This document shows positions 6,666 through 36,231 of a DNA stretch of 64,000 nt, one piece after another. Origin of the DNA: Terriglobia bacterium (GTDB lineage: Bacteria; Acidobacteriota; Terriglobia; 20CM-2-55-15); contig CAXWPJ010000012.1 of assembly GCA_963664115.2 (NCBI GenBank), positions 1-64,000 on the forward strand, read 5' to 3'. A model generated the notes under the pieces. It did not search any database, had not been told where the DNA came from, and saw only the letters and a list, made by a program, of their open reading frames with translations. The first letter of the stretch is position 1; every line of letters starts with the position of its first letter. The position numbers and the translations under genes are program-made.

Positions 6666-9600
6666 CTAATTCAACGGCCCTTTGATCACGCGAATGCGGT
6701 TGTTTCGCGTGTCGGAGATGAACACGTTCCCGGACAAATCGACGGCGACGCCTTTGGGGAGGTGAATGCTGGCTTCCGTTCCGACGCCGTTGTCGCCCGA
6801 AAAGGTCGAGCCCCCGTCGCCCGCGATTGTTTCTATGGTCCCAGTCTGAGAATCGACCCGGCGAATCCGGTTGTTCACGCTGTCGGCGATGAACAGGTTG
6901 CCGGCCGAATCTACTGTGACATCAAATGGTTTGCTCAGGAGCGCGTCGACCGCTCGCCCCCCGTCCCCGGCGAACCCTTCGAAAAACCCCCCGGTGCCGG
7001 CGACCGTCGCGGTTTCCAGCGTCGCCAGATCGATTTTGACGACGGTGCTGTTTCCGAAATCCGCCACAAAGAGCTGGTTGCGGAGTCTATCGATTGCGAT
7101 TCCCAAGGGGCCCTCACCCGCGAGGTTGTCGCTCAGGTCCAGGACCACGCTGGTGGCACCGGCCGTGTCGACCTTCATCACTTTATCGGTTATCGCATCG
7201 GCGAAATAAATGTTGCCGTTCGCGTCCAGGTTCACACTGACGGGTTGTGAGGAACCGAAATTTTCGCCCGCCACATCGACAATGGTGGTCAGAATTCCGG
7301 TGTTCACATTCACTTTCTGAATCTGGCCGGCCACAGTATCGGCGATGTAGATGTTCCCGCCGCTGTCTGTGGCGACATCCTCGGGAAATATCAGGCTGAA
7401 CTCCATGGCCGGCACGCTATCCATGAAACCGGAGCCAGCGAGATTCAGGGCACCGCGGCCCGCTAGGGTAGTAATGAGTCCGGTCCCCAGGTCGACCTTC
7501 CGGATTCGGCTCACGAATCGGTCCGCGATAAGGAGCGATCCATCTGGCGCGATTGTGATCCCGCCGGGAGAAAAGAGACGGGCCGCCCATGCCTGCTGGC
7601 CATCACCCAGGGGCAGACTACCGCCGGCATACTCCGTGACCTCGGTCGAGCTGTCGATCCTCAGTATTCTCGAGCTGAACTCACCCGTTCCCTGAGCGGG
7701 AGCATCGGAGACAAACAAGTCTCCGCTGCTGTCTACGGCGAGTCCTTTCGCAAACGTTGGGAATTCAAACTCACCCGACAGTACCGTCGTGACGAGGCCG
7801 TCCCCAAACCGCACGATACCCGCCGCCGCCACGAAAACGTCGCCTTCGGGCGACAGCGCCAGACCGAGCGGTTCCGAGATCCCGAATTCCGTCGCTATGC
7901 CGTTCGTCACCGAGCGCGTGGTGATGCGTTCACCGTTACCCAACACGGTGGAGATCACGCCGGTTGCATCGACCGTTCGGACGCGGAGATTGTCGGTGTC
8001 GGAAATGAGCAGGTTGCCGTCACGGTCCAGGCCAACCGCCCGCGGCCCGTTGAGACTCGCGCTGGCGGCCGGCCCGCCGTCCCCGGAAAAACCGGCGGCG
8101 CCGTTGCCGGCGACCGTCGTGATGATCCCGGTTTCCACATCCACTTTTCTGATGCGATGATTGCCGGTATCGGCGATGATCCAGTCGCCGTTCTGATCGA
8201 CCATGATTCCGAGGGGCCAGCTCAGACGTGCGACGACAGCCAGGCCCGCATCGCCGCTCAAGCCGAAGCTTCCGAGCCCGGCGACAGTACTGATCAGACC
8301 GGTCGACAGGTCCACCATCCGGATCCGATTGTTGCTGCTGTCGGCGATGAGCAGATTTCCTCTCCCGTCCAATGCCAGTCCCCAGGGCTTATTCAGCTTT
8401 GCGGCCACCGCCGGTTCCCCATCGCCGGAGAATCCCTCCAACCCCGTACCAGCAACCGTCAGGATGATTCCGGTTCGTCTGTCGATTTTCCGGATTCTGT
8501 GATCATCGGGATCGGCGACATAGAGGTCGCCGGTGGAATCGAAAGCAATGCCATACGATCTCCACAGGAGGGCGGACTCCGCGGCAGATCCGTCGCCCGA
8601 GAAAGAACTACCTCCGGCTATCGTCGTGATGTAACCGACGGGCAACTGATCCAACGAAACCGGCTCGACCAGCAACGCACTCTGGGTAAGCCCACCTCGA
8701 CCCTGGACCGTCAGGGTGGAACGTCCACTTGGAAGAGCGGGGGAGACAAACACCAGCGTCTGGCTGTCGACGAATTGGACAGCAATCGTTACGCCGGCAA
8801 CGAAAACCGAGGAATCCGGAGCAAAGTTCCGTCCCGTGATGGTCACCGTTGCACCGCCCTGGACGCTGATCTGTGGCGGGGTGATGGCGGTGATTTCGGG
8901 CTCGGCGAAACGGATCTCTTGAGCAACTCGGTCTGTCTCCGCAACCAACAGTCGACCGCTCTCGGTGATGGAAAGGCCGCGGGGGCTCTCGAAGGTTCCC
9001 GGCTGTGCGGTCTGGACCAGACTGCCATTTGTCAAAACCGTCCGGACGCTGCCGGATGTCCGTTCGCTGACGTGAATGTTGCCAAACGCATCGACGCTGA
9101 CACCTGTCGGCGTGGTGAAGTTGAGGGGAACACCCGCAATAATGTCGCTTGCCAATTTCGCGACCTCGGTCACTGCGGCAACGGAACCCGACGTACCCCC
9201 GGTCAGTGTTTCGACCAGTCCGGCTGCGGTCACTCGACGGATCAGCCCGTTCGCTGTGTCCGCGACGACGACCCGAATCTCTGGCGGGGGATCCCCTCTA
9301 GCTTCGCGGGCAAGTTGTTGCGCTGTGGTCTCCGATTCAATCGCGATTCCGGTGGGTTGGTTGAATCGGGCGTTGCTTCCCTGCCCGTCCGCTGAGCCGG
9401 GTTGCCCGGCGCTGCCCGCGATGGTTTCCACTTCTCCGGTCACCAGGTTGATTCTTCGGATCGTGTGGTTATCTTTGTCGGCGACCCACAAGTGTCCCCG
9501 GTTATCCAGCACCACCCCCTGGGGATTGTTGAACCCGGCCTGATCGGACGCACCGTCCAGACTGCCCGCCGTCCCGGTCCCCGCCAAGGTCGCGGATCGC

Positions 9601-10996
9601 CCGTTCGGTCCCGGTGCAATCGTCCGAATCACATGATTGGCCGCATCGCTGATGTAGAGATCTCCTCGGGCCTGATCCAGTGTCAGAAACGCCGGACTGG
9701 CAAACTCGGACTGGAGTCGCAGATCGTTCTTCAGTCCCGACCGTTGTCTCTGTCCCGCATACACCTCCGGGGTCTGCGACAAACTCTCGACCCGTACCAC
9801 GGTGTGATCTGCCGTCGAGGCCAGATACACCCGTCCAGCCAGATCCTGTGTGATACCGGTCCCGAACGCTCCCGACACGCCCGACTCGATCCCAACGACG
9901 GTGATCGTCGCCGTCGCCACGGTGTCTCCACTCTGAATCGTTAAGGTCGAAAAACCCCGCTGGTTCCCCGTAATCTGTCCACTACCGGTGATCGTCGCGA
10001 CCGTCGTGTCCAGACTCGTGAACGTGAAACCCATGTCGTCTCGTGCTTTGCCGGTGCTGTCGAGGGCCAGGATCCGTGGCCGGACCGTGTTGCCTTCGTT
10101 GATGGTGACTTCCGTGGTCGGGGCATTGGTCACCGAGTCCCGCAACGAAATACTCGACACCGTTCCGGCGTCTCCGGGAAACAATCGTTTCCCTTCGTTT
10201 CCTGCAAAGTCGAAGGTGAACTGGTCTGCGGTTTCTCCGGCCAACGGCACGGTCATCGGTGACCCGTTTGCTTCGTAGAACTCCACACCCACTTCCGACG
10301 CCTCACCGTTAAGGAACACCATCCGTGTCTCAAACCCGCTCCCGATGACAATCGTGGAAAACACTTTCATCGCTGCGGTCTGGGGTTGGGTCAGATCCGC
10401 TACCGGAAGCACTGCCATGATCAACTGCTCTCCCGTCAATTGCAGCGTGAGGGGTATCACCGCGACCGGACTCTGAATCTCAATCAGCCCGTTGTATCCG
10501 TTTACCATGCTGGGGAACAGGTCGTGGGCCATCTGTAACAGATGACCTCCGGGAGGAATCTCGCGGCTGACCCGCTCCTGTTCCTCTCCGAACCGGTTCT
10601 GGAGGATGAACTCCACCTCCACAGACTGGATCCCCCGGTGGGCTAGGGCCACCACGATCTGGCGCCCCCCGCTGTGGTCCACCGAAATCCGTGCCCGGGT
10701 GGTCTCCCGCGCCTCTCCCATGCCGGCCTCGGTCACCAACCCGTCTCCATTCCACAGTTGCACGACCGCGCTTGCCGTCGGTGTTGGCCCGACTTCCGGC
10801 GTCACCCGCGCATACCCCAGCGCCAGCGCATCCCCCCTCAGTTCGGCCCGGTACACCCCGTGCGGCGCGATCTGATAGGGTGCCTCCGAAGCCTGCCCCC
10901 CGTCCCAGTCCACCGCCATTGGAGTTCCGTCTGATCCTGCCAGCCGGATCCGACCGGAGACGCTCTCCTCACCCGGGTTGATGAGCATCAACTGGG
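6666..10996 (-). pseudogene. Large NHL-repeat (teneurin-like) surface protein with Ig-like and IPT/TIG domains, 5'-truncated by IS3
   Basis: Many AGxG...GDGG...PxGxAxD...IADxxNNRIR repeats; PEITAITP...VTITGRNF IPT motif; frame begins at the IS3 end and lacks a signal peptide. Confidence 0.8.
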
Positions 10997-16351: not shown

Positions 16352-17062
16352 TTCTCAATGTCCGGTCGAGTAGACCCGGGGAATTTCACCCCGAGTCCCC
16401 CACAGAACCGTGCTTGAACCTCTCGATTCACACGGCTCTTGCCAGCCGTTCGCCGACCACCGGTGGGGGGCCGACACCCGATGAATCCGGCTCCTCCCGC
16501 TTGCGCGGTTGGCCAGTTCCAAAGAGCGAGCTGGCTCATCCCCTTCGCTCCCCTCCCATTACAAGAGGTTCATCACTACTACAGGATGATCCGCCCCTGA
16601 ACTCCGCATCCGTACTCTCGCCCTCGTGGTTCTGGCCACTTGTGGCTTCTCCGTTAGCATCGAAGTTCAGGTTCCCACGTTCCGCTCAACCGCCTCTTGG
16701 TAAGCTCAGGCCACCTCTCATGCCGGAGGCCACTCCGCCCGTAAACAGGTTCCGTCGGAGCTCGTCCCGCAGTATCTTCTCCCTGCGGTTTTGGCCATCG
16801 TCTTTAAATTTTTGACACTTCAACAGTGGTTCCCTTTCGGTCCTCTTCTTACCAGTCACCTGACCCAGTCATCGCCGGGCCTTTTCCTTCTGCGCTCACG
16901 ACCATGGCTTTTGACCACAGCCGCCAGAGGTGGTTTGAAACCGACGCCTGTACGCCGGCTCCGAGGGGCCCTCCCTCATCAGTTGAGTAGTTACGCACTC
17001 GATGACCTTGCGGCCCCCGAGCACTCGTGGCACACAGAAGATGATTTGTCAGGACTTGACCT
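16352..17062 (-). repeat. dif-like site S2, interrupted by group II intron
   Basis: TTCTCAATGTCCG|intron|AGAA-GATGAT-TTGTCAGGACTTGACCT on + strand. Confidence 0.8.
16365..17035 (-). ncRNA. ORF-less group II intron, copy 1 (671 nt)
   Basis: 5' GTGTG; domain V GAGCCGTGTGAATCGAGAGGTTCAAGCACGGTTC with CCG/CGT triad region; domain VI ending CTACTCGAC; no RT ORF. Confidence 0.88.
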
Positions 17063-19474: not shown

Positions 19475-20199
19475 TTCTCAACGTCCGGTCGAGTAGACCC
19501 GGGGAATTTCACCCCGAGTCCCTCACAGAACCGTGCTTGAACCTCTCGATTCACACGGCTCTTGCCAGCCGTTCGCCGACCACCTCACGGTGGGGGGCCG
19601 ACACCCGATGAATCCGGCTCCTCCCGCTTGCGCGGTTGGCCAGTTCCAAAGAGCGAGCTGGCTCATCCCCTTCGCTCCCCTCCCATTACAAGAGGTTCAT
19701 CACTACTACAGGATGATCCGCCCCTGAACTCCGCATCCGTACTCTCGCCCTCGTGGTTCTGGCCACTTGTGGCTTCTCCGTTAGCATCGAAGTTCAGGTT
19801 CCCACGTTCCGCTCAACCGCCTCTTGGTAAGCTCAGGCCACCTCTCATGCCGGAGGCCACTCCGCCCGTAAACAGGTTCCGTCGGAGCTCGTCCCGCAGT
19901 ATCTTCTCCCTGCGGTTTTGGCCATCGTCTTTAAATTTTCGACACTTCAACAGTGGTTCCCTTTCGGTCCTCTTCTTACCAGTCACCTGACCCAGTCATC
20001 GCCGGGCCTTTTCGGGCCTTTTCCTTCTGCGCTCACGACCATGGCTTTTGACCACAGCCGCCAGAGGTGGTTTGAAACCGACGCCTGTACGCCGGCTCCG
20101 AGGGGCCCTCCCTCATCAGTTGAGTAGTTACGCACTCGATGACCTTGCGGCCCCCGAGCACTCGTGGCACACAGAAGATGATTTATCAGGACTTGACGA
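19475..20199 (-). repeat. dif-like site S3, interrupted by group II intron
   Basis: TTCTCAACGTCCG|intron|AGAA-GATGAT-TTATCAGGACTTGACGA. Confidence 0.8.
19488..20172 (-). ncRNA. ORF-less group II intron, copy 2 (685 nt)
   Basis: Near-identical to copy 1 apart from a 4-nt and a 10-nt insertion and a few substitutions. Confidence 0.88.
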
Positions 20200-20623: not shown

Positions 20624-23257
20624 TCAGGGGATCGGCACCCGTTGCCTCAGTGCTTCAATCCAGTTTAGGACCACGGTGATGGTGTCGCTTCCGGATTGCG
20701 CCGGAATCGAGAACAAAAATCGCTGACCATCGTCCGAAGCTTCATAGGGATGCCTCCCGGTGGCGGACGGCACAGAGAATAGTGCCTCTCCCTGGCCGAG
20801 GGAAAATGATGGCGCGTAAACAACCGATACGGCTGTCAACATACCGTCATCTGCAATGTAGAACAGTTCGTCACCATCGTCTCGCCAGACGGGCGCGGAG
20901 CCACCCGTTCCGGAAACTGGAATGGGAAAACTGGAGGTCGGAAACGCGTTGACGTACACCTCGGCCCGTCCCGATTGGTCGGAGGTGTATGCAACCCAAT
21001 TTCCGTCGGGCGAGAAAACGCCCTGACTTTCCTGAAACTGCGAACTAATGTAGGGAGTGGGCTCACCGTTTTGCTGCCCATCCGCCATCGGGACGCTCCA
21101 GATGTCGCCGCCGTCCAGATACAGCACCCAGCGGCCATCACGCGACCAGTCCATCGGCCAACCGCCATTCGCTACCAGATCCACCAGAATCTCGTCCGCG
21201 CCCGGTGCTGCAGTCACATAAAGGTCGAATGCCCCCCGGCGATTGGAAGCAAACACAATCTGTTCCCCGCCTGGAGACCACACGGGGACCAGATCCCCAT
21301 CGGTACCGAAGGTCCATGGCTGGGCGACTCCGCGCGAGATGTCGAGCTCCCACACATCGTTCGTCACGGCCGTGCCGACTAGTGATGTTCGATGCATCGC
21401 AACACGCGTTCCGTCGCGGGACAGGCGAAATCCATTGTAAATGCCCGGGGGGCCAACAGTGTCCAGCACAACACCGCTCCGGTCTAACCAGGCAAGCTGG
21501 TCGTCTCCGGACACCTGATATGCGAGGATGCCGTTGTCAGACGCAGAAAATAACACTGGAATCGTGCCACTGAGGTTTCGGACTTGGTCAGCTACGTCCA
21601 AAACAGGCCCCGTCAATTCGAGTCTATCGGGATCGAACCTTTGCGCCACCAGCGTCGTACCGCGCCGAAACAAGAGATAGCCGCTTTCGGAAGACACGTT
21701 GGACGGGACGTACGTTGCCGTGGTGAGGTCAGGAAGAAGTTCGATGGTTTCGCCGCCGTCGACCGAACCCACGCGGAGCCCCCCGCTGGCGGTGGCCTCA
21801 CGGTAGGTGAAAAGGAAATGCCGACCGTCCGGCAAGAACCATGGATCGCGGGGAGCCCTTCCGAGACCGGATAACCTCAATGGCTCGGGAGGCGTCTGGC
21901 CGGCTTCGTCCACCTGGTAGATTGCTCCAGGGCCGCTAAAAACGATCACGCCATCGTCGTTCCACGTTGCACCGTTATTAGCACTCAGGTCACGGATGTT
22001 GGCCACGAATGAAGTCGGGCCACCCGAGACAGGGGCTGTCCTTATCGCGCCATCCGCCAAAAAGCCGATCCTCGTGCTGTCCGGCTTCCAGAACGGTTCG
22101 CTGGCTCCTTCCGTGCCGGGCAGTGGACGCGCTTCGGGTGAGTCGAGCGCCTGCACCCAGAGCCGACGGTTCCCACCGGATATAGCAAGCCCACCGGATA
22201 TAGCAAGATAGCGGCCGTCAGGAGACAGCTTGAACCGGACTGCGCCTGAGAAAACATCCGGAACGGGCACGGTGAAGCGCACCATCCGTTGATCACTCGG
22301 ATCTTGACGGAAGTACACCAAAGCTAGAGCTGCCAAGGCGATCAGAAGTATTACAGCAATGGACCACGCAATGCGCGAAGAGCCGCTTCTCACCGACACG
22401 GAATCTGATTGAAGGGCAGTCGTTTCGCCTTCCTCGATCGTTAGCCGAATATCGCCGACCGCCTGCCATCGCCTGCGCGGGTCTTTGCGCAAACATTTTG
22501 CAATGATCGACCGAACGCCGGCAGGCGCGCGTTCCAACGCCGGAGTCCCAGCGATCACGGATGCGAGGATCTCCGGTGGGGCGTTACCCGGGAACAGCTT
22601 CTCGCCGGTCGCCATTTCATACAGCACGGCCCCGAAGGCCCACACGTCGGAGCGATGATCGACGGGCTTGCCGGTGGCTTGTTCAGGAGACATGTAGGCG
22701 GCCGTTCCCAAAAGCACGCCCGCCTCGGTGGCCGCCATACTGAGGGTGGGAGAGTTCGACAGACTGGCATTCCCTTCGTCACCCGCGAACGCTTTCGCTA
22801 ACCCGAAATCCAGCACTTTTACTTTTCCCTCAGGCGTTACCTTGATGTTCGCGGGTTTGAGATCCCGATGGATAACGCCCTTTTCGTGGGCGGCTTCGAG
22901 AGCCTCTGTGATCTGGAGCGCCAGCTTCAGGGTTTCTTCGACGGGGATCGCACCGCGCTTGATGTGATCGGCAAGCGTGTCGCCTTCGACAAGTTCCAAG
23001 ACGAGGAAGTGCGTCCCGTTGTCTTCTTCAAACCCGTGAATGGCTGCAATGTTCGGATGGTTGAGTGATGCCAGCGGCTTCGCTTCGCGTTCAAAACGTG
23101 CGAGCCGGTCGGCATCCTTCGCAAACTCTTCAGGCAGGGTCTTAATAGCGACTTCACGCCCGAGCTTCGTATCCCGCGCACGCCACACTTCGCCCATTCC
23201 ACCCTTACCCAAGAGCGTTGAGATCTCGTAGTGACCGAGTTTGGTGCCAAGTTCCAT
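20624..23257 (-). CDS. Hanks-type Ser/Thr protein kinase with TM helix and TolB/PD40 beta-propeller
   Basis: GKGGMG, VAIK, HRDLKPANI, DFG, YMSPEQ; TM at IAWSIAVILL; repeated SPDG/WSxDG blades. Confidence 0.93.
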   Translation of the reverse strand: MELGTKLGHYEISTLLGKGGMGEVWRARDTKLGREVAIKTLPEEFAKDADRLARFEREAKPLASLNHPNIAAIHGFEEDNGTHFLVLELVEGDTLADHIKRGAIPVEETLKLALQITEALEAAHEKGVIHRDLKPANIKVTPEGKVKVLDFGLAKAFAGDEGNASLSNSPTLSMAATEAGVLLGTAAYMSPEQATGKPVDHRSDVWAFGAVLYEMATGEKLFPGNAPPEILASVIAGTPALERAPAGVRSIIAKCLRKDPRRRWQAVGDIRLTIEEGETTALQSDSVSVRSGSSRIAWSIAVILLIALAALALVYFRQDPSDQRMVRFTVPVPDVFSGAVRFKLSPDGRYLAISGGLAISGGNRRLWVQALDSPEARPLPGTEGASEPFWKPDSTRIGFLADGAIRTAPVSGGPTSFVANIRDLSANNGATWNDDGVIVFSGPGAIYQVDEAGQTPPEPLRLSGLGRAPRDPWFLPDGRHFLFTYREATASGGLRVGSVDGGETIELLPDLTTATYVPSNVSSESGYLLFRRGTTLVAQRFDPDRLELTGPVLDVADQVRNLSGTIPVLFSASDNGILAYQVSGDDQLAWLDRSGVVLDTVGPPGIYNGFRLSRDGTRVAMHRTSLVGTAVTNDVWELDISRGVAQPWTFGTDGDLVPVWSPGGEQIVFASNRRGAFDLYVTAAPGADEILVDLVANGGWPMDWSRDGRWVLYLDGGDIWSVPMADGQQNGEPTPYISSQFQESQGVFSPDGNWVAYTSDQSGRAEVYVNAFPTSSFPIPVSGTGGSAPVWRDDGDELFYIADDGMLTAVSVVYAPSFSLGQGEALFSVPSATGRHPYEASDDGQRFLFSIPAQSGSDTITVVLNWIEALRQRVPIP
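22172..22207. repeat. 18-bp in-frame tandem duplication in kinase (LAISGG x2)
   Basis: CCCACCGGATATAGCAAG twice. Confidence 0.8.
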
Positions 23258-23354: not shown

Positions 23355-24603
23355 GGTGGTCTCAACAGATCGATGCAACACTGTACCTAAAAGGAGGAGG
23401 TGGAGTGTATGCGTAAGAAACGACGGAAGAAACAGAGTAAAGACCGGGTGCGGCGAGGCTACACACTCGCCGATATAGACGAGGTGTGGATTCGCTGGCA
23501 GCGGGGAGAGAGTCTGAAAGCGATCGGACGTGTGTTCGGAAAGGAGGGCTCTTCGGTTTATGGTCAGATCGCACCGTATGGTGGAATCTGTCCCAGGACA
23601 CGATGCCGCTCTAAGCGGGCGCTGACCCTCGCCGAGCGTGAAGAGATTTCCCGAGGCATTGCCGCCAAGGGATCGATCCGTTCAATTGCCGCCTCGCTGT
23701 CGCGTGCACCCTCCACAGTCAGTCGGGAGATCGGTCGCAATGGGGGCTATGATAACTATCGAGCGTTGGAGGCGGATGAACGCGCATGGGAACGGGCTCA
23801 CCGCCCGAAGAGATGTCGACTGATCCGCTATCCCAGCTTACGCGGGATCGTCGAAGAGAAGCTCCGGGAGGATTGGGCACCGCGACAGATTGCGGGTTGG
23901 CTGAAACGCGAATATCCAGACGACGAGTCACTTTACGTGTCACACGAAACGATCTATCGCAGCCTTTTCATCCAGGCCCGCGGGGCTCTGAAGAAAGAAC
24001 TGACACAGCATCTACGGACCAAACGCACGATTCGCCGGTCCCGGCATGCCAGTCGCAAAGGCCGGGGTGGCGGGCAGATCCCGGATCTGATATCGATCCG
24101 TGAGCGCCCGGCTTCGGTTGAAAATCGCGCGGTCCCCGGACACTGGGAAGGGGATCTCATAGCGGGTTCGAACAACACCTACATTGCGACATTGGTCGAA
24201 CGTTTCTCCCGGTACGTGATGCGGGTGAAGGTTCCGAATAAGGAAACCGAAACCGTCATCAACGCGCTGATCGAACACGCAGACAAACTCCCGACCGAAC
24301 TCTATAAAACACTGACCTGGGATCGCGGATTGGAAATGGCCAATCACAAACGGTTCACTCTGGCCACCGACATTGCCGTTTACTTTTGCGATCCGAGGAG
24401 TCCCTGGCAACGGGGTTCGAACGAAAACACGAACGGTTTGCTCCGACAGTATTTCCCTAAAGGTACGGACTTGTCGGTTCACTCACAGGAGCATTTGGAT
24501 ATGATCGCAAGGAAGCTCAACGGGCGACCTCGTGAGACGCTGGACTTCGCTAATCCGGCAGAGACATTAAACGCAGGTGTTGCTTCGACCGGTTGATCTG
24601 AAT
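23355..24603 (+). mobile_element. IS30-family element (diverged from the first copy)
   Basis: 26-bp imperfect IRs; 2-bp duplication GA. Confidence 0.88.
23409..24596 (+). CDS. IS30-family transposase
   Basis: Same motifs as 4354-5535. Confidence 0.93.
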   Translation: MRKKRRKKQSKDRVRRGYTLADIDEVWIRWQRGESLKAIGRVFGKEGSSVYGQIAPYGGICPRTRCRSKRALTLAEREEISRGIAAKGSIRSIAASLSRAPSTVSREIGRNGGYDNYRALEADERAWERAHRPKRCRLIRYPSLRGIVEEKLREDWAPRQIAGWLKREYPDDESLYVSHETIYRSLFIQARGALKKELTQHLRTKRTIRRSRHASRKGRGGGQIPDLISIRERPASVENRAVPGHWEGDLIAGSNNTYIATLVERFSRYVMRVKVPNKETETVINALIEHADKLPTELYKTLTWDRGLEMANHKRFTLATDIAVYFCDPRSPWQRGSNENTNGLLRQYFPKGTDLSVHSQEHLDMIARKLNGRPRETLDFANPAETLNAGVASTG

Positions 24604-24994: not shown

Positions 24995-27088
24995 CTACTG
25001 AACCTCAAAAGCCTCCGGGACGTGAAAGGTCAGAACCGCGTTCAGAGTCTTATCGGTGACGATGACATTCTGATGCTCTATATCAAGCGCCACCCCCCGC
25101 CCGTCCTTCAGCACCCCATTGGGACCGCCGATGGTAAAACGGGGAGGCACTTCACCGTCGTCATAGACACTCCAGACACCCACGTAATCGAGGGCGTCGT
25201 GTCGGTCTCCACCGCTGATCTTGACGAAGATCATTCCGTTCTCTGAATTGATTGCCATCAGGCCGGTGCCCCTCCTGCCCACATCCTGAGGCACGGAAAT
25301 CACTCCGCGCGGTTGGGCTCTTCCTGAGGCCGTTCGGTCATAAATATGCAGTTGCGGGCCTCCTGAGACAACCAGTAGATTACGGACCGGATCGACGGCC
25401 ACCCGACCGGGCGTCTTGTCCAACTCCAGGATGCGCATGGGTGCGACATCCCCATTCGCCTCCCTCGGAAAGACCAGTATCCGGTTGTCACCGTGTCGTC
25501 CTGGAACGTAAATCTCGTCGTGGACCGGGTCCACCGCTACCGCATGTGTGTTTTTCAACTGCGTGCTGGGTCCCATTATTGTTCGAATCGGCGCCACGTC
25601 TCCGTCTGCATCGCCACTGAAGGTAAGGATGGCGAATGCAAAGAACTGAGGCACGATGATCTCGTCATGAATCGGGTCGTAGGCCATATCATGCATGGTC
25701 CGGGTAAAGAGCGTGTTCTGACCCGCGATTTCCCGTGTGGGCTGTGCTTCACCGTTCGCCAACCTGGCGAATGCCGCAACTTGCGGATGGCCCACTCAGT
25801 TGGCGACGAGAAGCTGGTCCCGTTTGGAATCGTAGGCCACCGTGTGGGCATTGCTCAGCATGGGCGACGGAGTGTCGGCCGGCCCGCTTCTGATCACCCT
25901 TTTCGGGGTTGCATTTCCTTCTGCGTCCAATTCGAAGACCGTCGCCGAATGACTTCCGAAGTTGGCCACCCAGAGCTCGTCATTCTCCAGGTCAATGGCG
26001 ATGCCGGTTGGATTCCGGATCATGGTCAGAGGGCCGCTGATCACCCGTAGAGGAGCCACATCCCCGTTGGCATCCGCGCTGAAGACAATGACTGAGTGCC
26101 CGGTGTCATTGGCAACAAAGATCTCCCCGCGATCGGGATGCACTGCCAGAGCGGTCGGCCAGTTCATCTGAGTCCTTGGGCCCTCAATGACACGCAATGG
26201 TGCGGTGTCTCCTTGAGCGTCCTTAGGGTAGACCGTGATTGAGGGAGGTTTAATCTTTCCTGATCCTGCGAAAGCACGGGCACGTCCGACCGGAAAATCG
26301 GATCGGTTGTGCCGGTCGTCGCCACCCCCGCCTTCTGACAGGGGCGGCCTTTCGTTGTAAGTGCCCCAGTTGGACACGAAGATTTCATCCCGCCGGGTGT
26401 CCAGGGCAATTCCATGAGGATCCGCCAACTGAGTGCTGCTGCCCTGAAGGATTCGGATAGGGCTATCCTCATCTTTGGCCTCTTTCTCGAACACCACCAC
26501 AGCGTGATCGTCTTGAATCGTGAGAAACAGCTCCTGCTCTTCTTCGTCGACCACCACTGCGAAGGTCGTGTGGGGAGTCCTCAACTTGCGCTTGGGCGCA
26601 ACGTTCCCCTCGGCGTCCCGGCCAAAGACCGGCATCCAGTTCATGGTGTCGTTATTGATTCCGTAAATGTCGCCGCTGGCGGGATCAACATAGACGCCGC
26701 AGGCATACTCAAGAAAAGTCTCCTCTCCCCCGATGATCCTCTTGGGTTCCGTCAATGTTGCCTGCGGAGGAGTATTGGAGAGGCGGTCATAGACAACCAG
26801 ATTGGAAACATTCTCCTCCGCGATGACGACTTCGTTACGGATCGGATCGACCGCAATACCCGCAAAACCGAAGTAGCGGTCCCTGACTATGGAGATGGGC
26901 TCCCTGTTCGCCACCGCTTCCCTGACTTCTTCGCTGGGGCGGGGTGGAGCCAGTGTTGTGCGGTCTCCCTGAGACTGCGGAGCAGTCGGGCCGGATAACA
27001 CCAGGCCGGTCGAAACCAGAAGGGCCGGAAGGAAGAGCAGTAACTTCTTCGGGCGGCGGCAGAATGAAGAGATCCAGCGAGCGGTCAT
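24995..27088 (-). CDS. Secreted multi-blade beta-propeller (NHL/YncE-like), paralogue A; in-frame TGA at 25796-25798, putative selenocysteine
   Basis: ORFs 25796-27088 and 24995-25795 are in the same frame, separated only by TGA; repeated PxRxIxGPxTxLxxPxGIAxD blades on both sides. Confidence 0.7.
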
Positions 27089-27676
27089 GATTGTTTGCCT
27101 CCTGTCTTGCGGTAGTCGTGCCGACTATTCCTCTAAGAGTATAGTAGGGGCATCAAGAGCGGGGCTCAAGCGGAATCGAACAGCGTGCAGGCTGGAACTA
27201 ATTTGCCTATCCCGGCCGAATCCTGAATCTGTCGATAGCGGTCAATCAGAATGATGCTGACGGCGAACACGGGGCGGATCAACCGGGACCAGGAATTATT
27301 GCGGGACCGTAGAGCCGCCAGTCGGTCTGACTATCCGGGCGCTGGATCGTGGGAACACATGGCCTCGGCGGCTTCGGTCTCGGGCGCGACAGGAACGATC
27401 TGCGAACGCCATTTCGCCACCGGCGCTGCACAGGGATGCGGGCGATGGTACTCTCTGTAATTCTTGTTCGTTCTTCATGAAGTGTGGGTATACTGGCCGC
27501 AACAAGAGAGCATTCACAACTGAAAGTCACGTTCTGAAGCGGTTCTCCGGCAGGGAGGCCCACCTCATTTTGTCTTGGAGGGCACACGTGGCGTGGCGCC
27601 TGGGCAATGGATTGGAACCGGGTCACAACTGGACAACTTTCGATCTATCGATCGCATGCAAAACTGAGGAGGAAAT

Positions 27677-30600
27677 ATGGCAGCTACATGGAATTGCTTC
27701 TTGAAGTACCTACGACCTTTGAAATTCAGCATCTACACACTGATTCTGCTCCTGACGGTGACAACGGGAACGGCTTCGGCCCAGCTGACATCGGGCACGA
27801 TCACGGGGACCGTTACCGACGAATCGCAGGCCCTCATTCCCGGTGTCGACGTAACCGTCACAAACCCGGCCACCGGGCTGACGCGCGATCTCGTCACGAA
27901 TGAGGTCGGACGTTACGAAGCCCCGAATCTGCCCATCGGCACCTATGAAGTGACGGCCGCGCTGCCCGGTTTCGGCACAGCGATCCGACAGGGTGTCGCA
28001 TTGACCGTCGGGCGGACGGCCGTCATCGACATTGTCCTGCAAGTGGGCCAGGTGGCCCAGACCATCGAGGTCCAGGCCGACGCGCTCATGGTCGAAACGA
28101 CACAGGCAACCGTCGCACACCTGATCGACCAGCTGGAAGTCGAAAACCTTCCGCTCGTTAACCGCGACCTGACCCAACTCGCTTTTTTGCAACCCGGCAT
28201 CCTGAAGGTTGGCAGCTCGGGCGACCAGGGCGTGTTCAGCGGGATGGGTGACAAGTTCAGCGTGGCCGGCGCTCGCGGCACGCAAAACCTGTTCCTGCTC
28301 GACGGCGTGTCCAATCAGGACTTGTCCGGCAATGCCCAAGGCGTTTCCGGTGCCCTCATGGGCGCCGAGACGGTGCAGGAGCTCCAAATCATCACGAACA
28401 ACTACTCGGCGGAATACCGCAGCGCCGCGGGCGGCATTGTCAGTGCCGTCACCAAATCCGGCACGAACGAGTGGCACGGCTCGCTTTTCGAGTTTTTCCG
28501 CAACGAGGCCCTGAATTCCGAAAACTACTTCGACAAGGAATTCGGGAATCCAAAGCCGAGATTCAGACAGAACCAGTTCGGTGGCTCCGTCGGCGGGCCA
28601 ATCATAGCGAACAAGTTGTTTTTCTTCGGCAGCTATGAGGGATACCGGCAGGAAAAAGGCGAAACCGACACCGTGAACGTCCCGAGCCTGAACGCGCGCG
28701 CGGGGAGGTTGGCCGATGGTACGGTGGTTGACATTAACCCTACGGTGCTGCCCTACCTGAATCTCTACCCGGTACCCGGGCAGGGAAACCAGATTGTCGA
28801 AGACCTCGGCGACCGGACGCTGATTGCCGGCACGCGGCTCGAGCCCGCGAACAACAACTTCTTTCTCACTAAGCTTGACTACGAGGTCAATGCCGATAAC
28901 AGGATCTCGGGAACCTACAACTTCGACAAGGGAGATCGATCGCCCCTTGGCCTTCTTGCGGACACGAACGCGCAGGGAATAACCAGTCGAAAGCACCTGC
29001 TCGGAACCAAGTGGACGAGTGTCCTCTCCAGTAACTCGGTCAACGAATTCAACTTCAGCTACGCCGATAGTGAGCCCGGGGGCGCCATCCCACTGAGCGA
29101 CCGCGATTTCGAAGCAGAGGGACTGATTTTCCGCGAGAACCGGACGAAGATGGGCCAGATTGCGATCTCCGGCGGCTTCAGCAGCATTGGCTACCGCGTG
29201 GATCCATCATATTACCGGCAGCGGACCTACACTCTAAAGGACGGCTTTTCCCTGATCCGGGGTGACCATTCGTTTCGGGTGGGGGGCGAGTGGACGTATT
29301 TCAACTACAACATGGAGTCGTGCAGTCGTGGCTGCAACGGCATCTTTAGCTTCAGGAGCATGGAGCATTTCCTGGAGGGCATTCCGCGGCGATTCGAGGT
29401 GATGCTCCCGGGTGGGGACAACAAGCTCCGCGATATGGGCCAGCACCTCCTGGGGCTTTACTTCCAGGATAACTGGCGGGCCACGGACACGCTCACGTTT
29501 AATTTAGGCGTGCGTTACGAAACGGCCAGCGTCCCCACCGAAGTGGATAACAAATTCTCCAATCTGGAGAATTTCTTCGCCGACGAGGTCACCTTGGGCG
29601 TTCTCTATGACAATCCAACAAAGAAAGCTTTCAGTCCGCGTGTCGGTATCGTGTGGGCGCCGAATCAGAACACCTCGATCCGTACCGGCTTCGGTATATT
29701 CTACGAGCACCCCATGCTGTACAACATCCGGACAGCGCTGCAGGAGCTGCCGCCTTTTACGCAGGTGGGCCGCATCGATGACCGCCGTATCCGAAGGGCC
29801 ATCGGTGAGGAGATCGACTTCCCCAATGCCTTCTCTACACAGATCGACCAGGCGAGCGCCCGGACGAACATTCGCACTTTCCAGAAGGAACTGGACCTGA
29901 CGTATATTTACCGCTGGAACCTCACCATACAGAGACAGTTTGCGAACGATTTTATGGCATCGGCGGAATATACAGGATCGCGCGGCCTGCATCTCTGGAA
30001 CCAGTCGTCCGCAAACCTCAACCGATGGGAGGGTTGGCCGGAACAGCCGCCGCCAGGCACGGACAAGTTCTTCCCCGAGGGCAGCGATTCAATTAATCCG
30101 AACTTTGGAGAAATGCGGTTCCAAAGCACGGCCGGCAACGCCTACTACCACGGTGGAGCCTTTGCGCTCCAATACCGGCCGACTACGGGGCCTCAGTTCA
30201 GCGCGACTTTTAACTATTCGAAGGCCATTGACGACGGTTCCGGCGTCACCAGCGGTGGCGATGAACTGCAGCAGTCCCAGCGTGGCATGTATCTCTGGGA
30301 TTTTGACAAAAAACGAGGCCTGTCATCCTTTGACATTCGGCGGTCGTTCACGATGAACGGCACGTACGCGCTTCCGTTTGGCGACCAGCTGACCGGTCCC
30401 GCGGGCGTCATCGGCCGAGGTTGGCAGCTCAATGGCGTGGCGACGGTGTCGGATGGGTATCCCGTGTCTGTGCGCGAATCCAGCGGTGATCAGGAAGATC
30501 GCATCGGCGATGATTCTGATTTGCGGCCGGACCTGATTCCCGGCGGGCACACGAATTCGACCGGCGATCCCAACCGTTGGGTCGATGTCTCGCAGTTCAC

Positions 30601-30883
30601 ACCGACGAGGCTCGGATACTTCGGCAATCTGGGGCGTAACACGGTGACCGGTCCGGGTCTGGTGAACGTGGATCTCTCGTTCTTCAAGAACACCGATCTC
30701 TCTGAGAGCACGAGCCTCCAGTTCCGGGTCGAGACGTTCAACCTGTTCAACCGCAACAACTTCGCAACCCCGGATGACATGAACGCCTTCAGAGACGGGG
30801 AGGTGAATCCAAACTTCGCCCGTATCACCCGAACGCAGACACCCGCGCGGTCGATTCAGCTGGGGTTGCGGTTCACCTTCTAG
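27677..30883 (+). CDS. TonB-dependent receptor with N-terminal carboxypeptidase regulatory-like domain
   Basis: Signal peptide; GTITGTVTD, LPLVNRD, TKSGTN, NQFGGSVGGPI, C-terminal QLGLRFTF. Confidence 0.92.
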   Translation: MAATWNCFLKYLRPLKFSIYTLILLLTVTTGTASAQLTSGTITGTVTDESQALIPGVDVTVTNPATGLTRDLVTNEVGRYEAPNLPIGTYEVTAALPGFGTAIRQGVALTVGRTAVIDIVLQVGQVAQTIEVQADALMVETTQATVAHLIDQLEVENLPLVNRDLTQLAFLQPGILKVGSSGDQGVFSGMGDKFSVAGARGTQNLFLLDGVSNQDLSGNAQGVSGALMGAETVQELQIITNNYSAEYRSAAGGIVSAVTKSGTNEWHGSLFEFFRNEALNSENYFDKEFGNPKPRFRQNQFGGSVGGPIIANKLFFFGSYEGYRQEKGETDTVNVPSLNARAGRLADGTVVDINPTVLPYLNLYPVPGQGNQIVEDLGDRTLIAGTRLEPANNNFFLTKLDYEVNADNRISGTYNFDKGDRSPLGLLADTNAQGITSRKHLLGTKWTSVLSSNSVNEFNFSYADSEPGGAIPLSDRDFEAEGLIFRENRTKMGQIAISGGFSSIGYRVDPSYYRQRTYTLKDGFSLIRGDHSFRVGGEWTYFNYNMESCSRGCNGIFSFRSMEHFLEGIPRRFEVMLPGGDNKLRDMGQHLLGLYFQDNWRATDTLTFNLGVRYETASVPTEVDNKFSNLENFFADEVTLGVLYDNPTKKAFSPRVGIVWAPNQNTSIRTGFGIFYEHPMLYNIRTALQELPPFTQVGRIDDRRIRRAIGEEIDFPNAFSTQIDQASARTNIRTFQKELDLTYIYRWNLTIQRQFANDFMASAEYTGSRGLHLWNQSSANLNRWEGWPEQPPPGTDKFFPEGSDSINPNFGEMRFQSTAGNAYYHGGAFALQYRPTTGPQFSATFNYSKAIDDGSGVTSGGDELQQSQRGMYLWDFDKKRGLSSFDIRRSFTMNGTYALPFGDQLTGPAGVIGRGWQLNGVATVSDGYPVSVRESSGDQEDRIGDDSDLRPDLIPGGHTNSTGDPNRWVDVSQFTPTRLGYFGNLGRNTVTGPGLVNVDLSFFKNTDLSESTSLQFRVETFNLFNRNNFATPDDMNAFRDGEVNPNFARITRTQTPARSIQLGLRFTF

Positions 30884-30940
30884 CAGCAGGGGTGGTGGCG
30901 CTCCAGAGCGCCATTACATCAAAGCGCAAGTGTGGCTGCC

Positions 30941-30974
30941 GTACGACCCAAATCGGTCCCGATTTGGGTCGTAC
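30941..30974. repeat. Perfect 16-bp-arm palindrome (REP-like)
   Basis: GTACGACCCAAATCGG-TC-CCGATTTGGGTCGTAC. Confidence 0.75.
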
Positions 30975-31058
30975 AAGTCGCGAGCGAGCGGGCAGTCCCG
31001 CTAAGACACTCTTTCTCGAACAGACACTCTCCAATTAAACCGCCATATGGTAGGGCGC

Positions 31059-31189
31059 GGTACTGTCAAGTTAAGCTATTTGTTGGCGTTCCCGCCGCAA
31101 TCTGCCACGTCTAAGTCATTGATTCTTGGTCTTGGCTCCAGCAGAATCTGTCCCTAAAATGGACGGGTTCTCCTTAACTTGACAGTACC
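31059..31189. mobile_element. 131-bp IS6-derived MITE
   Basis: Perfect 17-bp IRs GGTACTGTCAAGTTAAG, matching the IS6 end at 38736. Confidence 0.7.
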
Positions 31190-31373
31190 TCCCGCTCCAG
31201 AGTTCCAAGCAGGTCCGACATGGGACTGCTTGATTGGAAGGTGAAATCGCGTCTATGTCCGTCCATCGTCGACAAAGAGCGTGCAATGAACCCGGCTGAA
31301 GATATAGCATTGAATGGACGAGTCTAGAAGAACGTCTCACACGCTACTAACGAAGATAGCCACGGAGTTTAAA

Positions 31374-33569
31374 ATGATTCCTTGCAAGCCCCGGTCATCG
31401 ATTTTCGCTCGGAAAACGGCAGTGCTCACTATCTTTGCATTCTTGGCGACGATAGGAATTTTCACCGCTGGCGGGAGCCCGCAGCGATTGGAGCGAACAC
31501 AAACTTTTGGAACAGACCGCCTCCTATCCTTGGAGACTCTGCCGCAAGCGAATGGGGCGTTCTACCCTTCGGTTCCGGTCGGCGCATCCATAAACCTGTC
31601 GGCGGCGTTCGAGCAATCGGCGGTGCCAGCAGGCGAGGAGACGGCTTCCCGGGATCCGCTCCGGGTGATCCGCGATCCTTACCCCAGCTTCAGCTCGGTG
31701 GTGGTCGACATGGAGCGCGGTGAAGTGGTGGCGGGCGACGAGAACCTGTTCCAAGTCCTGGTGTACGACCGGCTTTCGAACACTCCGCCCCAGGCGACGC
31801 TGACCGAACCTCGTCGAGTGATTGCGGGTGATCAGACGGGACTCGAATTTGTTTGCGGCATGCACATGGATCAGTCCACGGGAGATATTTACGTCATTAA
31901 CGCCGATACTGCGGCGCAGATGCAAGTGTTTACCCGCTCACAGGAGGGCAATGTGCCGCCCTCGCGAGTGCTGAACACCGGCCACCGGATCAGAGGACGC
32001 GGCATCGCCGTCGATTCGGACAACAGAGAACTCTTCCTTGCCAGCCAGCACAACGCCGCGCTTGCGGTTTTCCGCCTCGATGCCGAGGAGAACGAACTGC
32101 CGATCCGCCTGCTCCAGGGCGACCGAACGCGACTGGCCAACCCTCATGGGATTGCTTTCGACAGCCAGAATGGCCTGGTCTACGTCAGCAACCATGGACA
32201 GGTATCGAGTCGGCCGGTGCGGGAGGCGGTGGAAGACCGGGACGACGTGCAGCCCAACGTCCCCCTGCCAAGAAGTATGGCGTTGCCGGGATCAGGCCGG
32301 TTCCTGCCGCCGTCGATCAACGTGTATCGCCGTACCGCCAGCGGCAACACACCGCCGCTGCGCGTGATCGAAGGACCCAGGACGCAGTTGAATTGGCCTG
32401 CGGGAGTTGCGATCGACGAGCGCCGAGGCGAGCTCTATGTCGCCAACGACACCGGTAATTCGGTGCTGGTGTTCCGCGCGGATGCATCGGGCGACGTGGC
32501 GCCTATCCGCGTGATCGAGGGACCCAACACTAAATTGGATGCCCCCGGGGGCGTGTTCCTGGATACCCGGAACAACGAACTTTGGGTCTCCAACTACGGG
32601 AATCACTCGCTGACCGTTTTCGCTCTCACAGCGGACGGCGACACCGCACCGCTCCGGCTGATCAGAAGCGGACCGGCCGACAGCCCGGCGCTGATGATCG
32701 GCAATCCGGGCGCTGTGGCCTATGACACAAAACGGGAAGAGATTCTGGTACCCAACTGAGTGGCCCATCCGCAGATTGCGGTATTCGCCAGGCTGGCGGA
32801 GGGCACAGATGGAATGACTCGAAGGATTGAGGGACAGCAGACTTTGCTGACCCGGACCATGCACGCGATCCACTACAACGAAGTTCGTGACGAGATCGTG
32901 GCGCCAAATCAGTTTGCGCAGGCCATCCTGACCTTCCGCGCCTCGGCCGTTGGGGAGGAACCGCCGATCCGTGTCATACAGGGCGATCGCACCCAGCTGG
33001 AAGGGTCGTCGGGCGTCGTAATCGACACCAAACACAACGAGATTATTACGGAGCGCAAAGTCTTCCCGATTGACGCGGACGGCAACGTCCCGCCGAGCCG
33101 AACGCTCGAGTACTCGGTCAGTGCCGTCGACATGGACAACGATCTTTACATCGGCACGCGCGGACGTGACGGCGGAACCCAGCTCATGATCTTTGACCGC
33201 AACTCTGACAGTGCCGAACCGCTGCGGGTCATCAGCGGACCGAGAACGATGTTGGTCAATCCGAGGAGGATTCGAGTCCACAATGGCTGGATCCTGGTCG
33301 CGCACGACGGGATCCAGACTGACAATCCAAACAACCTGTCTTTTGTCGGGATCTGGAGCGTCAACGACGAAGGCAACGTCCCGCCCCGCTGGACTTATGG
33401 TGGACCCAACGAGATGCTCGATAAGCCCCGCGGTGTCGATGTCGACCCGAAGCATCAAACAATCATCGTGACTGACAAGACGTTGAACGCTGTGTTGACG
33501 TACTATGCGCCGGAGATTTTCGGAGAACCCGGAACCGGGAGCCGGCGGGTTGAAGAGCCGGCGGATTGA
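31374..33569 (+). CDS. Secreted beta-propeller, paralogue B; in-frame TGA at 32757-32759, putative selenocysteine
   Basis: GGAG RBS then ATG 31374; ORF continues in frame after TGA (VPN*VAHPQ); colinear with paralogue A. Confidence 0.7.
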
Positions 33570-34168: not shown

Positions 34169-35353
34169 CTACGCACTATCCTGAATTGGAACCTCCTTTG
34201 ATTCGAGAGCGGCGAGCTGTGCCGCGGTTAATCGCTCGACCAGACGCATCGGTCCCCGGCAGATCGGACACGGTGCCGGTGGGGTAGCACCCGCCTCGGA
34301 CTCCGGCTCGGTGATGGACTCCTGACCTAAGAGGTGCCGACAGAGTTCCAGCATCGTCTTGCGTTTCCGATTTGCCATCCATCCGTAGTACCGGATGCGG
34401 GGAAAGCCTTTCGGTAAGACATGCAGGAGGAATCGACGGAGGAACTCTTCGGGTTGGAGTGTCATTGTTCGTGGACGGCCATTGTGGCGATAGTCCTTCC
34501 AGCGGAATGTAACGCCGGATTGGTTGACATCGAGGATGCGATGATTCGAGATGGCCACCCGATGGGTATAGCGGGCCAGGTACTGAAGGACGTGTTGGGG
34601 TCCGCCGAATGGTTCTTTGGCGTACACCACCCAGTTCCGATCCTTCAGATCGTCGAGGAACCGCTCGAAGGTGGATTCGGTGGCCAGTTCCAGACACTCC
34701 CCATGGAAAACGAGCGTCTTGTTTCCGAAGGCTTCGGCTAAACCGTCGAGAAACTTTTCTCTGAAAACGTAGCTGAGCTTCTGGACCGGGAGGAAGAAGT
34801 CGGTCCGGGAGGAGTGGATCCACCGGTCGTGATCCGGGGACAGTCCGCCACCGGGAACCACACAGTGGATATGGGGATGGCGTTGCAGGGTTTGTCCCCA
34901 GGTATGCAGGATGCTGAGGAATCCGATCTCGCCGCCCAGATACCTGGGGTTTCGGGCCACTTCGATCAGCGCCGCCGCACTGGTTCGGAACAGAAGCGCA
35001 TAGAGCACCTTCTTGTTCTGCCAGATCAATGGGATCAACTGATGGGGCAGGCTGAAGACCAGATGGAAGTATCCGATCGGTAGCAGTTCCTGTTGCCGTT
35101 TCTCGACCCAGGTGTTCCGCGCATTGGTCTGGCACTTCGGGCAGTGGCGGTTCCGGCACGAGTGGTAGACCAGCGTTTGGTGGCCACAGTGGTCGCATCG
35201 TTTCCGGTTCCCGCCCAGTGCGGCGGTCCGGCAATGGGTAATCGCGTTGAGGACCTTGACCTGGGGCCAGGCCAGCGCTTTCAAATACCGTTGTCGGAAT
35301 CGGTCTCCGACGATGCGAATCACGTCAGCCACCTCAAAGGGTGGCCGGCTCAC
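34169..35353 (-). CDS. IS91-family transposase
   Basis: Protein identical to 133-1317. Confidence 0.92.
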   Translation of the reverse strand: MSRPPFEVADVIRIVGDRFRQRYLKALAWPQVKVLNAITHCRTAALGGNRKRCDHCGHQTLVYHSCRNRHCPKCQTNARNTWVEKRQQELLPIGYFHLVFSLPHQLIPLIWQNKKVLYALLFRTSAAALIEVARNPRYLGGEIGFLSILHTWGQTLQRHPHIHCVVPGGGLSPDHDRWIHSSRTDFFLPVQKLSYVFREKFLDGLAEAFGNKTLVFHGECLELATESTFERFLDDLKDRNWVVYAKEPFGGPQHVLQYLARYTHRVAISNHRILDVNQSGVTFRWKDYRHNGRPRTMTLQPEEFLRRFLLHVLPKGFPRIRYYGWMANRKRKTMLELCRHLLGQESITEPESEAGATPPAPCPICRGPMRLVERLTAAQLAALESKEVPIQDSA

Positions 35354-36231
35354 TTCTTTGGATCCTTAACCACAGGTGAAAGCTTCAACTGATCCAGAGG
35401 ATTGCGCGCGGTTCGAAGATGGCGCCGGGACAGTTGCAGGTAGAGCGTGGTATCGCTGAGCCGACTGTGTCCCATCAAGAGCTGGATCGTGCGCAAGTCG
35501 GTCCCGGACTCTAGCAGGTGGGTCGCGAAGCTGTGCCGTAGCGTGTGCGGACCGATCCTCTGGGTCAGACCCGCACGCTGGGCGGCCCCATGAACGGCAT
35601 GCCAGACCACCTTGTCCGAGATCGGAGCATCCGTGCCCCGGTGTCCTGCACTGCTGTGAAACAGATAGACCTCGGGCTTTTTCAATAACCAGTACCCCCG
35701 TAACGCTTCAAGCAGATTGCGACTCAACGGGACATCCCGGTCCCGACGCCCTTTCCCGTCGCGGATATGCACCAGCATCCGTTCACTGTCGATGTCGGCC
35801 ACCTTCAACACGGCGGCTTCGGCCCGTCGCATCCCGGTCCCGTAGAGCACCATCAGGATGGCCCGGTGCATCGGACTCAATGCGGCTTGGATCAACCGGC
35901 GGACTTCAGACGGACCCAGGATCGTGGGTAGTTTCCGCGCACTCTTGGGCATGGGCAGATCATCCAGTTCCAGATCCGCACGTCGCAGCAGCACCTTCTT
36001 GTAAAGGAATCGTATCGCCGAGGTCCGCATCCCGACCGTACTCGCCGCCAGCTTCTTTTCGGTCAGTAAGTACAGCTGAAAACGCCGTACCTCCTCGGCT
36101 CCCATCAAGGCCGGAGACTTGCCGAAGTAATTCGCGAATTGTTCGACTGCCAGAATGTAGCCACGACTCGTGGCCGGGGAATAGTTCCGTCGCTGGAGTT
36201 CCTCCAGCATCCGTTCTCGTAGTTGGGTCAT
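35350..36231 (-). CDS. Tyrosine recombinase with N-terminal SAM-like domain
   Basis: YGTGMR, GKG, HTLRHSFATHL, GH, catalytic Y. Confidence 0.92.
   Translation of the reverse strand: MTQLRERMLEELQRRNYSPATSRGYILAVEQFANYFGKSPALMGAEEVRRFQLYLLTEKKLAASTVGMRTSAIRFLYKKVLLRRADLELDDLPMPKSARKLPTILGPSEVRRLIQAALSPMHRAILMVLYGTGMRRAEAAVLKVADIDSERMLVHIRDGKGRRDRDVPLSRNLLEALRGYWLLKKPEVYLFHSSAGHRGTDAPISDKVVWHAVHGAAQRAGLTQRIGPHTLRHSFATHLLESGTDLRTIQLLMGHSRLSDTTLYLQLSRRHLRTARNPLDQLKLSPVVKDPKK

Follow-up and report, generated by a model that had tools for sequence, protein, structure and literature searches.

We analyzed a 64,000-nucleotide (nt) stretch of DNA from a Terriglobia bacterium (GenBank assembly GCA_963664115.2, contig CAXWPJ010000012.1, positions 1 to 64,000 of the forward strand; hereafter, the window) that contains two paralogous loci, copies A and B, each resembling a pair of adjoining genes. 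A first-pass annotation, made from the sequence alone, had proposed that each pair is one secreted beta-propeller gene interrupted by an in-frame TGA and that the two copies represent a new selenoprotein family. We conclude that each locus is a single gene and predict that selenocysteine (Sec) is very likely inserted at its in-frame UGA. Four findings are direct observations: each gene has one TGA at a fixed column, every fused homologue has cysteine there, a hairpin is constrained at the RNA level, and the genome encodes complete Sec machinery.

When open reading frames (ORFs) were called with translation table 11, copy A appeared as two adjoining minus-strand ORFs (25796-27088, 430 amino acids [aa], and 24995-25795, 266 aa) and copy B as two adjoining plus-strand ORFs (31314-32759, 481 aa, and 32760-33569, 269 aa). 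Calling ORFs again with TGA read through merged each pair into a single frame interrupted by just one TGA, as originally described. Copy A then occupies 24995..27088 on the minus strand, ends in a TAG (24995-24997), and encodes a predicted exported double NHL-propeller protein of 697 aa. Copy B occupies 31314..33569 on the plus strand and ends in a TGA (33567-33569); its product is 751 aa from the first ATG and 731 aa from the second (31374), the latter agreeing with the ~731 aa first suggested for it, as 697 aa does for copy A. The internal TGAs are the predicted codons for U431 of copy A (25796..25798, minus strand), based on the frame, cysteine in homologues, and family codon counts, and for U482 of copy B (32757..32759, plus strand), based on the frame and family codon counts. 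The surrounding sequences are QLLVAN-TGA(25798..25796)-VGHPQVAAFARLA in copy A and EILVPN-TGA(32757-32759)-VAHPQIAVFARLA in copy B. The two proteins are 49% identical (320/649), and their alignment is continuous across the TGA, which falls in the same column in both.

This column is shared far more than expected by chance. The host genome carries 13 paralogues, and TGA is at the same column in 13/13; where one paralogue has two TGAs, the second is its ordinary stop. We also compiled a DNA set from the host genome together with 16 loci from genomes and 80 from metagenomes. After removal of four regular-expression matches from outside the family, it held 104 distinct family genes, with TGA at the site in 96, TGC or TGT in eight, and neither TAA, TAG, nor an out-of-frame junction in any. 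Among the 150 matches listed in a separate search at the level of the order, all but two had TGA; those two had TGC and TGT, bringing the Cys-form DNA sequences to 10. Protein databases gave the complementary picture. Among the best 120 database proteins, all 57 of at least 600 aa had cysteine at this column, while 62 of the 63 shorter ones ended at the residue just before it. These short entries are gene-caller truncations. Thus, the alternation of TGA with cysteine codons that the first-pass annotation had put forward as a sign of Sec was found, and no fused homologue carried any other residue.

Sec and cysteine have exchanged repeatedly. A FastTree phylogeny of 146 rows (82 Sec and 64 Cys; sampling differed, the protein database being the main source of Cys rows and DNA that of Sec rows) required 16 Sec/Cys state changes, of which well-supported branches force at least 13. 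These data bear on the alternative that the TGA is a true stop, such that each locus is a two-gene operon or a split gene, the pieces of which may assemble, and the downstream piece is translated by termination-reinitiation at a GTG. Gene callers do split the genes in this way, giving the short entries that end at the site, and other ORFs in the window do end normally in TGA. In addition, the codon following the TGA is GTG in 86/95 genes, which on sequence is compatible with a stop followed by a restart. However, a true stop does not account for the absence of TAA and TAG from all 96 genes with an internal stop, for the invariant frame and spacing, for cysteine in 10/10 fused DNA sequences as well as all fused proteins, or for at least 13 switches between TGA and TGY. 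No Shine-Dalgarno-like motif was found before the post-TGA codon, in keeping with the earlier statement that the downstream halves lack a ribosome-binding site, and the break would lie inside one propeller blade. Considering also the hairpin described below, which is synonymously constrained in TGA-containing genes and relaxed in Cys forms, we regard a true stop as very unlikely.

Two hairpins follow the TGA in both copies, with the sequences and positions originally noted. A bacterial Sec insertion sequence (bSECIS) is expected to have an apical loop of 3-9 nt on a stem of 4-16 base pairs (bp), a G in the first two loop positions, a location 16-37 nt after the UGA, and a minimum free energy (MFE) of at most -7.5 kcal/mol (PMC13188914). 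Hairpin 2 is UUCGCCA-GGU-UGGCGAA in copy A (25755..25771, minus strand; apical loop 30 nt past the UGA; -8.2 kcal/mol when folded alone) and UUCGCCA-GGC-UGGCGGA in copy B (32784..32800, plus strand; -7.6 kcal/mol when folded alone). Its pairing is UUCGCC/GGCGAA with an AGGUU loop. All four bSECIS criteria hold for this hairpin in 87/96 genes, including copies A and B: the stem is 6-7 bp, the loop is N-G-[G/U]-N-N, the spacing is 30 nt, and the MFE is at or below -7.5 kcal/mol in 87/96. The G at the second loop position is present in 96/96 genes. We therefore predict that hairpin 2 is the bSECIS core. Hairpin 1 (pairing CCGC/GCGG) is CCGCA-AGU-UGCGG in copy A (25774..25786, minus strand) and CCGCA-GAU-UGCGG in copy B (32769..32781, plus strand). 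It does not fit the bSECIS description, as it is weak on its own (-5.3 kcal/mol in copy A), its loop is too close to the UGA (13-14 nt), and the G is missing in 16/96 genes. Thus, although the first-pass annotation called both hairpins SECIS-like, this applies to hairpin 2, and hairpin 1 is better described as a conserved spacer hairpin. Both hairpins are fully paired in 81/96 genes.

Comparison of the 96 Sec genes revealed that synonymous variation collapses over codons +1 to +13 relative to the flanking codons, which have 1-2.4 bits of synonymous entropy. Codon +4 is CCG in 96/96 Sec genes, codon +7 is GCG in 95/96, codon +9 is TTC in 95/96, codon +10 is GCC in 93/93, codon +11 is AGG in 91/94, and codon +13 is GCG in 96/96. 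By comparison, two other conserved arginine columns have AGG in only 4/96 and 5/94 genes. All six codons are canonical in 86/96 Sec forms but in only 2/8 Cys forms (Fisher 1.2e-4, with kin that are not independent), and in the two extra Cys genes, GCA and TCG/TCC changes break both stems. The hairpin is thus constrained at the RNA level, and this constraint is relaxed in Cys forms.

Besides the frequent GTG codon after the TGA, several observations weigh against decoding as Sec. Single-sequence folds showed no significant extra stability compared with shuffled sequences (z -0.1 to -1.9), and the minimum-energy fold predicted for copy B is a different structure. Because the stems hardly vary, compensatory covariation is essentially absent. 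On the RNA side, the evidence consists of synonymous-site conservation and 10 Cys-form DNA sequences that are mostly from close kin, and, since the single-sequence folds are not significant, the argument rests on the synonymous-site constraint. Finally, SelA was not detected in one genome that carries the family, which is 81% complete. A scan of the window with Rfam at gathering thresholds matched only group II introns and no SECIS family. To our knowledge, Rfam has no bacterial SECIS model, and this negative is therefore uninformative either way.

The host genome (4.89 Mb in 12 contigs, 97% complete) encodes SelA, SelB, and SelD, as well as one tRNA-Sec with a UCA anticodon (71.6 bits). All four selA/selB/selC/selD components that the first-pass annotation had named are therefore present. 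The selD gene has an in-frame TGA of its own, and its UGA is followed by GUCCAGG-GGA-CCUGGAC, a 7-bp stem with a GGA loop that has the same shape as hairpin 2. At the level of the order, SelA was present in 31/35 genomes and in 12 of the 13 that carry the family, so TGA-bearing genomes do not generally lack the machinery. We detected no Sec-type formate dehydrogenase alpha subunit in the host genome: nothing exceeded the TIGR01553 cut-off, and no match contained an in-frame TGA. The host Sec machinery seems to be kept for SelD and the propeller family, among others.

We also considered that the UGA is translated as Trp, Gly, Cys, or Ser, through either a reassigned code or a tRNA of the suppressor or allo-tRNA type. 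Unusual allo-tRNAs, possibly suppressors, are reported in Acidobacteria (PMC5389517), and the host has two unusually long tRNAs, a 92-nt tRNAAsn(GUU) (C2:821483-821574) and an 88-nt tRNAVal(UAC) (C9:543440-543527), which may be allo-tRNA-like species of the kind described there. However, ARAGORN identified 52 tRNAs in the host, and the tRNA-Sec has the sole UCA anticodon and is the only one that reads UGA; neither of the long tRNAs does, their anticodons being GUU and UAC. Moreover, 7 of the 15 window ORFs checked, copy B among them, terminate at a TGA in the ordinary way; the 15 comprised 13 ORFs matched by Pfam and the two downstream halves. Strict alternation with cysteine codons together with a SelB-type hairpin is a signature of Sec rather than of general suppression, and we consider readthrough as another amino acid to be extremely unlikely.

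A further alternative is that copies A and B are decaying pseudogenes in a region rich in insertion sequences (IS), with the shared TGA as inherited damage. The window is rich in transposases, and the three-gene cassette formed by the two copies and the gene between them is flanked on the left by an IS30-like transposase (23400..24596, plus strand; HTH_38 and rve domains) and on the right by an IS91-like transposase (34169-35353, minus strand) and a tyrosine recombinase (35350-36231, minus strand), both identified with Pfam. Yet, apart from a single internal stop, each frame is intact over its full 697 or 751 codons, the site is shared by copies that are only 49% identical and recurs in 96 genes across many genomes and metagenomes, and the invariant residues cluster around it. 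The copies are almost certainly not pseudogenes.

We modeled the copy A protein with AlphaFold2, using an alignment of 53 sequences and substituting C for U. The model (pLDDT 91.7, pTM 0.89) consists of 12 blades of four strands each, preceded by 41 disordered residues at the N terminus (pLDDT below 50), within which a basic and then hydrophobic segment reads as a putative signal peptide. Both copies match Pfam NHL (PF01436; 43.7 and 59 bits against a gathering cut-off of 20) and Pfam Lactonase (PF10282; 42.3 and 36.2 bits against 21.7). With VIA-align, residues 69-389 superimposed on the TRIM2 NHL domain (7qrv_A; Z 29.1, rmsd 2.3 Å, 251 aligned residues), residues 69-389 or 69-402 matched six-bladed NHL domains with Z of 28-29, including those of NHLRC2 and SOQ1, and other six-bladed enzymes aligned across ranges spanning 52-697. 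Because of these aligned ranges, we infer a predicted fold in which two six-bladed NHL propellers lie in tandem. Foldseek against the Protein Data Bank (PDB) returned only generic tandem WD/propeller proteins (TM ~0.3), and a sequence profile search of the PDB gave repeat-level matches only (best E 9e-6); neither suggested a function.

Database names such as YncE and lactonase, including the JGI label "DNA-binding beta-propeller fold protein YncE" attached to many members, are not supported, because the equivalog scores are below cut-off and the model matches six-bladed domains. No NCBIfam model fits the family, the only matches being far below cut-off. We rejected an identity as YncE or 6-phosphogluconolactonase, as YncE (NF052280) scored 20.7 and 18.9 bits against a cut-off of 400 and 6-phosphogluconolactonase (NF008258) scored 38.4 and 25.2 bits against a cut-off of 370. 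Another propeller-type protein is encoded in the window at 6666-10991 (minus strand). This 1441-aa protein has many NHL repeats, a teneurin-type NHL domain, and an IPT/TIG domain; it differs from the propeller family described here and has no in-frame TGA.

The first-pass annotation had placed the TGA within a blade, and the predicted structure agrees: residue 431 falls after strand 425-430 and before strand 437-441 of one blade, and thus in the loop that connects strands two and three of blade 7, with which the C-terminal propeller begins. In the model, this loop is on the top face, the usual ligand-binding side of propellers in such enzymes. The most conserved stretch of the family encloses the site (N413, D420, R423, N430, U431, V432, H434, P435, R452, R463, T464, H466, Y470, and D475); H225, W373, and H380 are conserved outside it. 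Conserved histidines had been noted and are present as H225, H380, H466, and, in most members, H434. By contrast, the cysteine of the EYACG/EFVCG motif (C130), which had also been called conserved, is not invariant, being present in 67/82 Sec forms and 22/64 Cys forms. We considered this cysteine as a resolving partner of Sec and rejected it: the raw association (82% versus 34%) vanishes once kinship is controlled, since 13 independent Sec/Cys contrasts comprised ~3 in the same direction, none in the opposite direction, and 10 unchanged (p ~0.25). The conserved residues may form one redox or metal site.

Copies A and B belong to a large family of soil Acidobacteria. The order-level search covered 35 genomes of one family, and 13 of these were carriers at an E value of 1e-40 or better. 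Within the genus, three of the four other genomes gave 20, 30, and 34 matches. Named relatives are metagenome-assembled genomes of Terriglobia, Acidobacteria, Bryobacterales, and Solibacteraceae. A scan of JGI metagenomes yielded 612 pattern matches, of which 535 encode relatives, and we estimate ~1,400 such stretches in the whole collection. In a phylum-wide sample, 2 of 401 genomes had a match at 1e-30 with two candidates scored per genome, which is not an estimate of distribution.

The gene between copies A and B (27677..30883, plus strand) encodes a TonB-dependent-receptor-like outer-membrane protein with CarboxypepD_reg and OMP_b-brl_4 domains (PF25183, 9.6e-166). Such a receptor gene directly adjoins 6/13 host paralogues, and a DUF5916 protein adjoins 2/13; the host genome has only ~35 such receptor genes (42 matches) in 4.9 Mb. 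A role in the envelope linked to TonB-dependent uptake is one tentative suggestion from this arrangement. Two points count against it. The counts of receptor neighbors are not independent, because the cassettes are tandem duplicates, and the association is weaker in other genomes, where receptors make up 11 of 126 flanking ORFs. This survey covered the 126 largest of 147 flanking ORFs and revealed no single universal operon partner. The commonest families among the 126 were OMP_b-brl_4 receptors (11), SAM methyltransferases (9, all in one clade), NMT1-like binding proteins (7), amidohydrolases (6), and proteins with a metallo-beta-lactamase fold (4).

We asked if the neighboring receptor could itself be a Sec-containing FCYXU-type TonB receptor and found no match above the cut-off in the host genome. 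The receptor gene beside one paralogue (C9:1073173-1075684, minus strand) consists of two overlapping ORFs with two TGAs within the match; it is probably a frameshifted copy and is not of the FCYXU type. Just downstream of another paralogue (C2, about 360046-360750) is a DUF3179 (PF11376) ORF that matches profile positions 68-231 only. Catalogued selenoproteins include the DUF3179 family, which has the motif UxxC/T (PMC13188914); given this and the partial match, the N terminus of the protein may lie beyond an in-frame TGA. At two separate loci near paralogues (window 20624-23257, minus strand, and L129:1480-4194, C10), Ser/Thr protein kinases are fused to PD40 (WD40-like) propeller repeats.

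The window contains other mobile elements. Two IS91-type transposase ORFs that have the same length (394 aa) and the same Pfam scores (133-1317, plus strand, and 34169-35353, minus strand) are probably inverted copies of one element that bracket ~33 kb containing many other IS genes as well as the propeller cassette. Among the transposase genes are two short group II introns of ~610-630 nt (16365-16977 and 19488-20114, minus strand), apparently without ORFs, each of which has matches to RF01999 (D1-D4) and RF00029 (domain V/VI) above gathering thresholds.

The recoding mechanism is canonical. As in SelB-read genes with an intragenic bSECIS, for which Escherichia coli fdhF is the prototype, an in-frame UGA is matched by cysteine in homologues and followed within the gene by a 6-7 bp stem-loop with an N-G-[G/U]-N-N loop at a 30-nt spacing. 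As in other bacterial selenoprotein systems, selA, selB, selC, and selD are in the genome, and the host selD hairpin has the same shape. Unlike in standard bSECIS genes, however, the stretch from the UGA to the SECIS core contains a second conserved hairpin.

The novelty lies in the protein family, its fold class, and its copy number. A 2026 review inventories 119 prokaryotic selenoprotein families and subfamilies, with no propeller, NHL, or lactonase entry among them (PMC13188914, Table 1). These terms were likewise absent from the main texts and supplements examined for deep-Sep, BSepDB, and PMC13188914, and full-text searches outside subscription journals yielded no description of a propeller, NHL, YncE, or lactonase selenoprotein. 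The suggestion that propellers are an undescribed selenoprotein family is therefore in line with the 119-family inventory. The propeller protein is neither a thioredoxin-fold protein nor a molybdopterin enzyme, and it occurs in 13 copies in the host, with 20-34 matches in congeners. Among propellers, the family resembles six-bladed NHL proteins (TRIM2/TRIM71, NHLRC2, SOQ1, and peptidyl-alpha-hydroxyglycine alpha-amidating lyase) in its above-cut-off Pfam NHL score and its superposition on TRIM2, but differs from them in having two propellers in tandem (12 blades) and sequence matches to structures at the repeat level only. It shares an above-gathering PF10282 score with YncE and lactonase-type seven-bladed propellers, but its model matches six-bladed NHL domains. 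None of the six-bladed NHL relatives is known to use a nucleophilic Sec or Cys in the loop of a blade.

In the model that we favor, SelB and tRNA-Sec very likely decode the UGA as Sec under guidance from the hairpin located 30 nt downstream, and the product is predicted to be exported and to contain two six-bladed beta-propellers of the NHL type. Failure to insert Sec would release the 430-aa N-terminal propeller. Sec would be the catalytic or metal-binding residue in a site shared with the invariant residues N413, R423, H434, R463, T464, H466, and Y470, and the protein would likely act in the envelope alongside the neighboring TonB-dependent outer-membrane transporter. The repeated exchange of Sec and Cys at one loop would mark the active residue of an enzyme family, and the pairing with TonB-dependent transporters may be a lead to its substrate.

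A broader scenario, which we put forward as a speculation that we on balance doubt, is that soil Acidobacteria have a selenium-dependent envelope system. It would consist of repeated two-gene cassettes, each encoding a TonB-dependent transporter and an exported double-propeller enzyme, and catalytic Sec on the propeller face would represent new selenoenzyme chemistry on a scaffold that is neither thioredoxin nor molybdopterin based. With 13 to ~30 copies per genome and no Sec formate dehydrogenase, the family would be the main reason that these largely aerobic bacteria keep the Sec machinery, and they would be among the most selenoprotein-rich bacteria known.

The family has consequences for sequence databases. 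Because gene callers halve these genes and the names YncE and lactonase are unsupported, hundreds to thousands of soil-metagenome entries are wrong. It also extends the list of selenoproteins, in which small thioredoxin-fold proteins dominate, by a large beta-propeller that is predicted to be exported. If our prediction is true, soil Acidobacteria without a Sec formate dehydrogenase spend Sec on at least 13 paralogues of one family, and estimates of selenoproteome size and of the selenium demand of soils would change.

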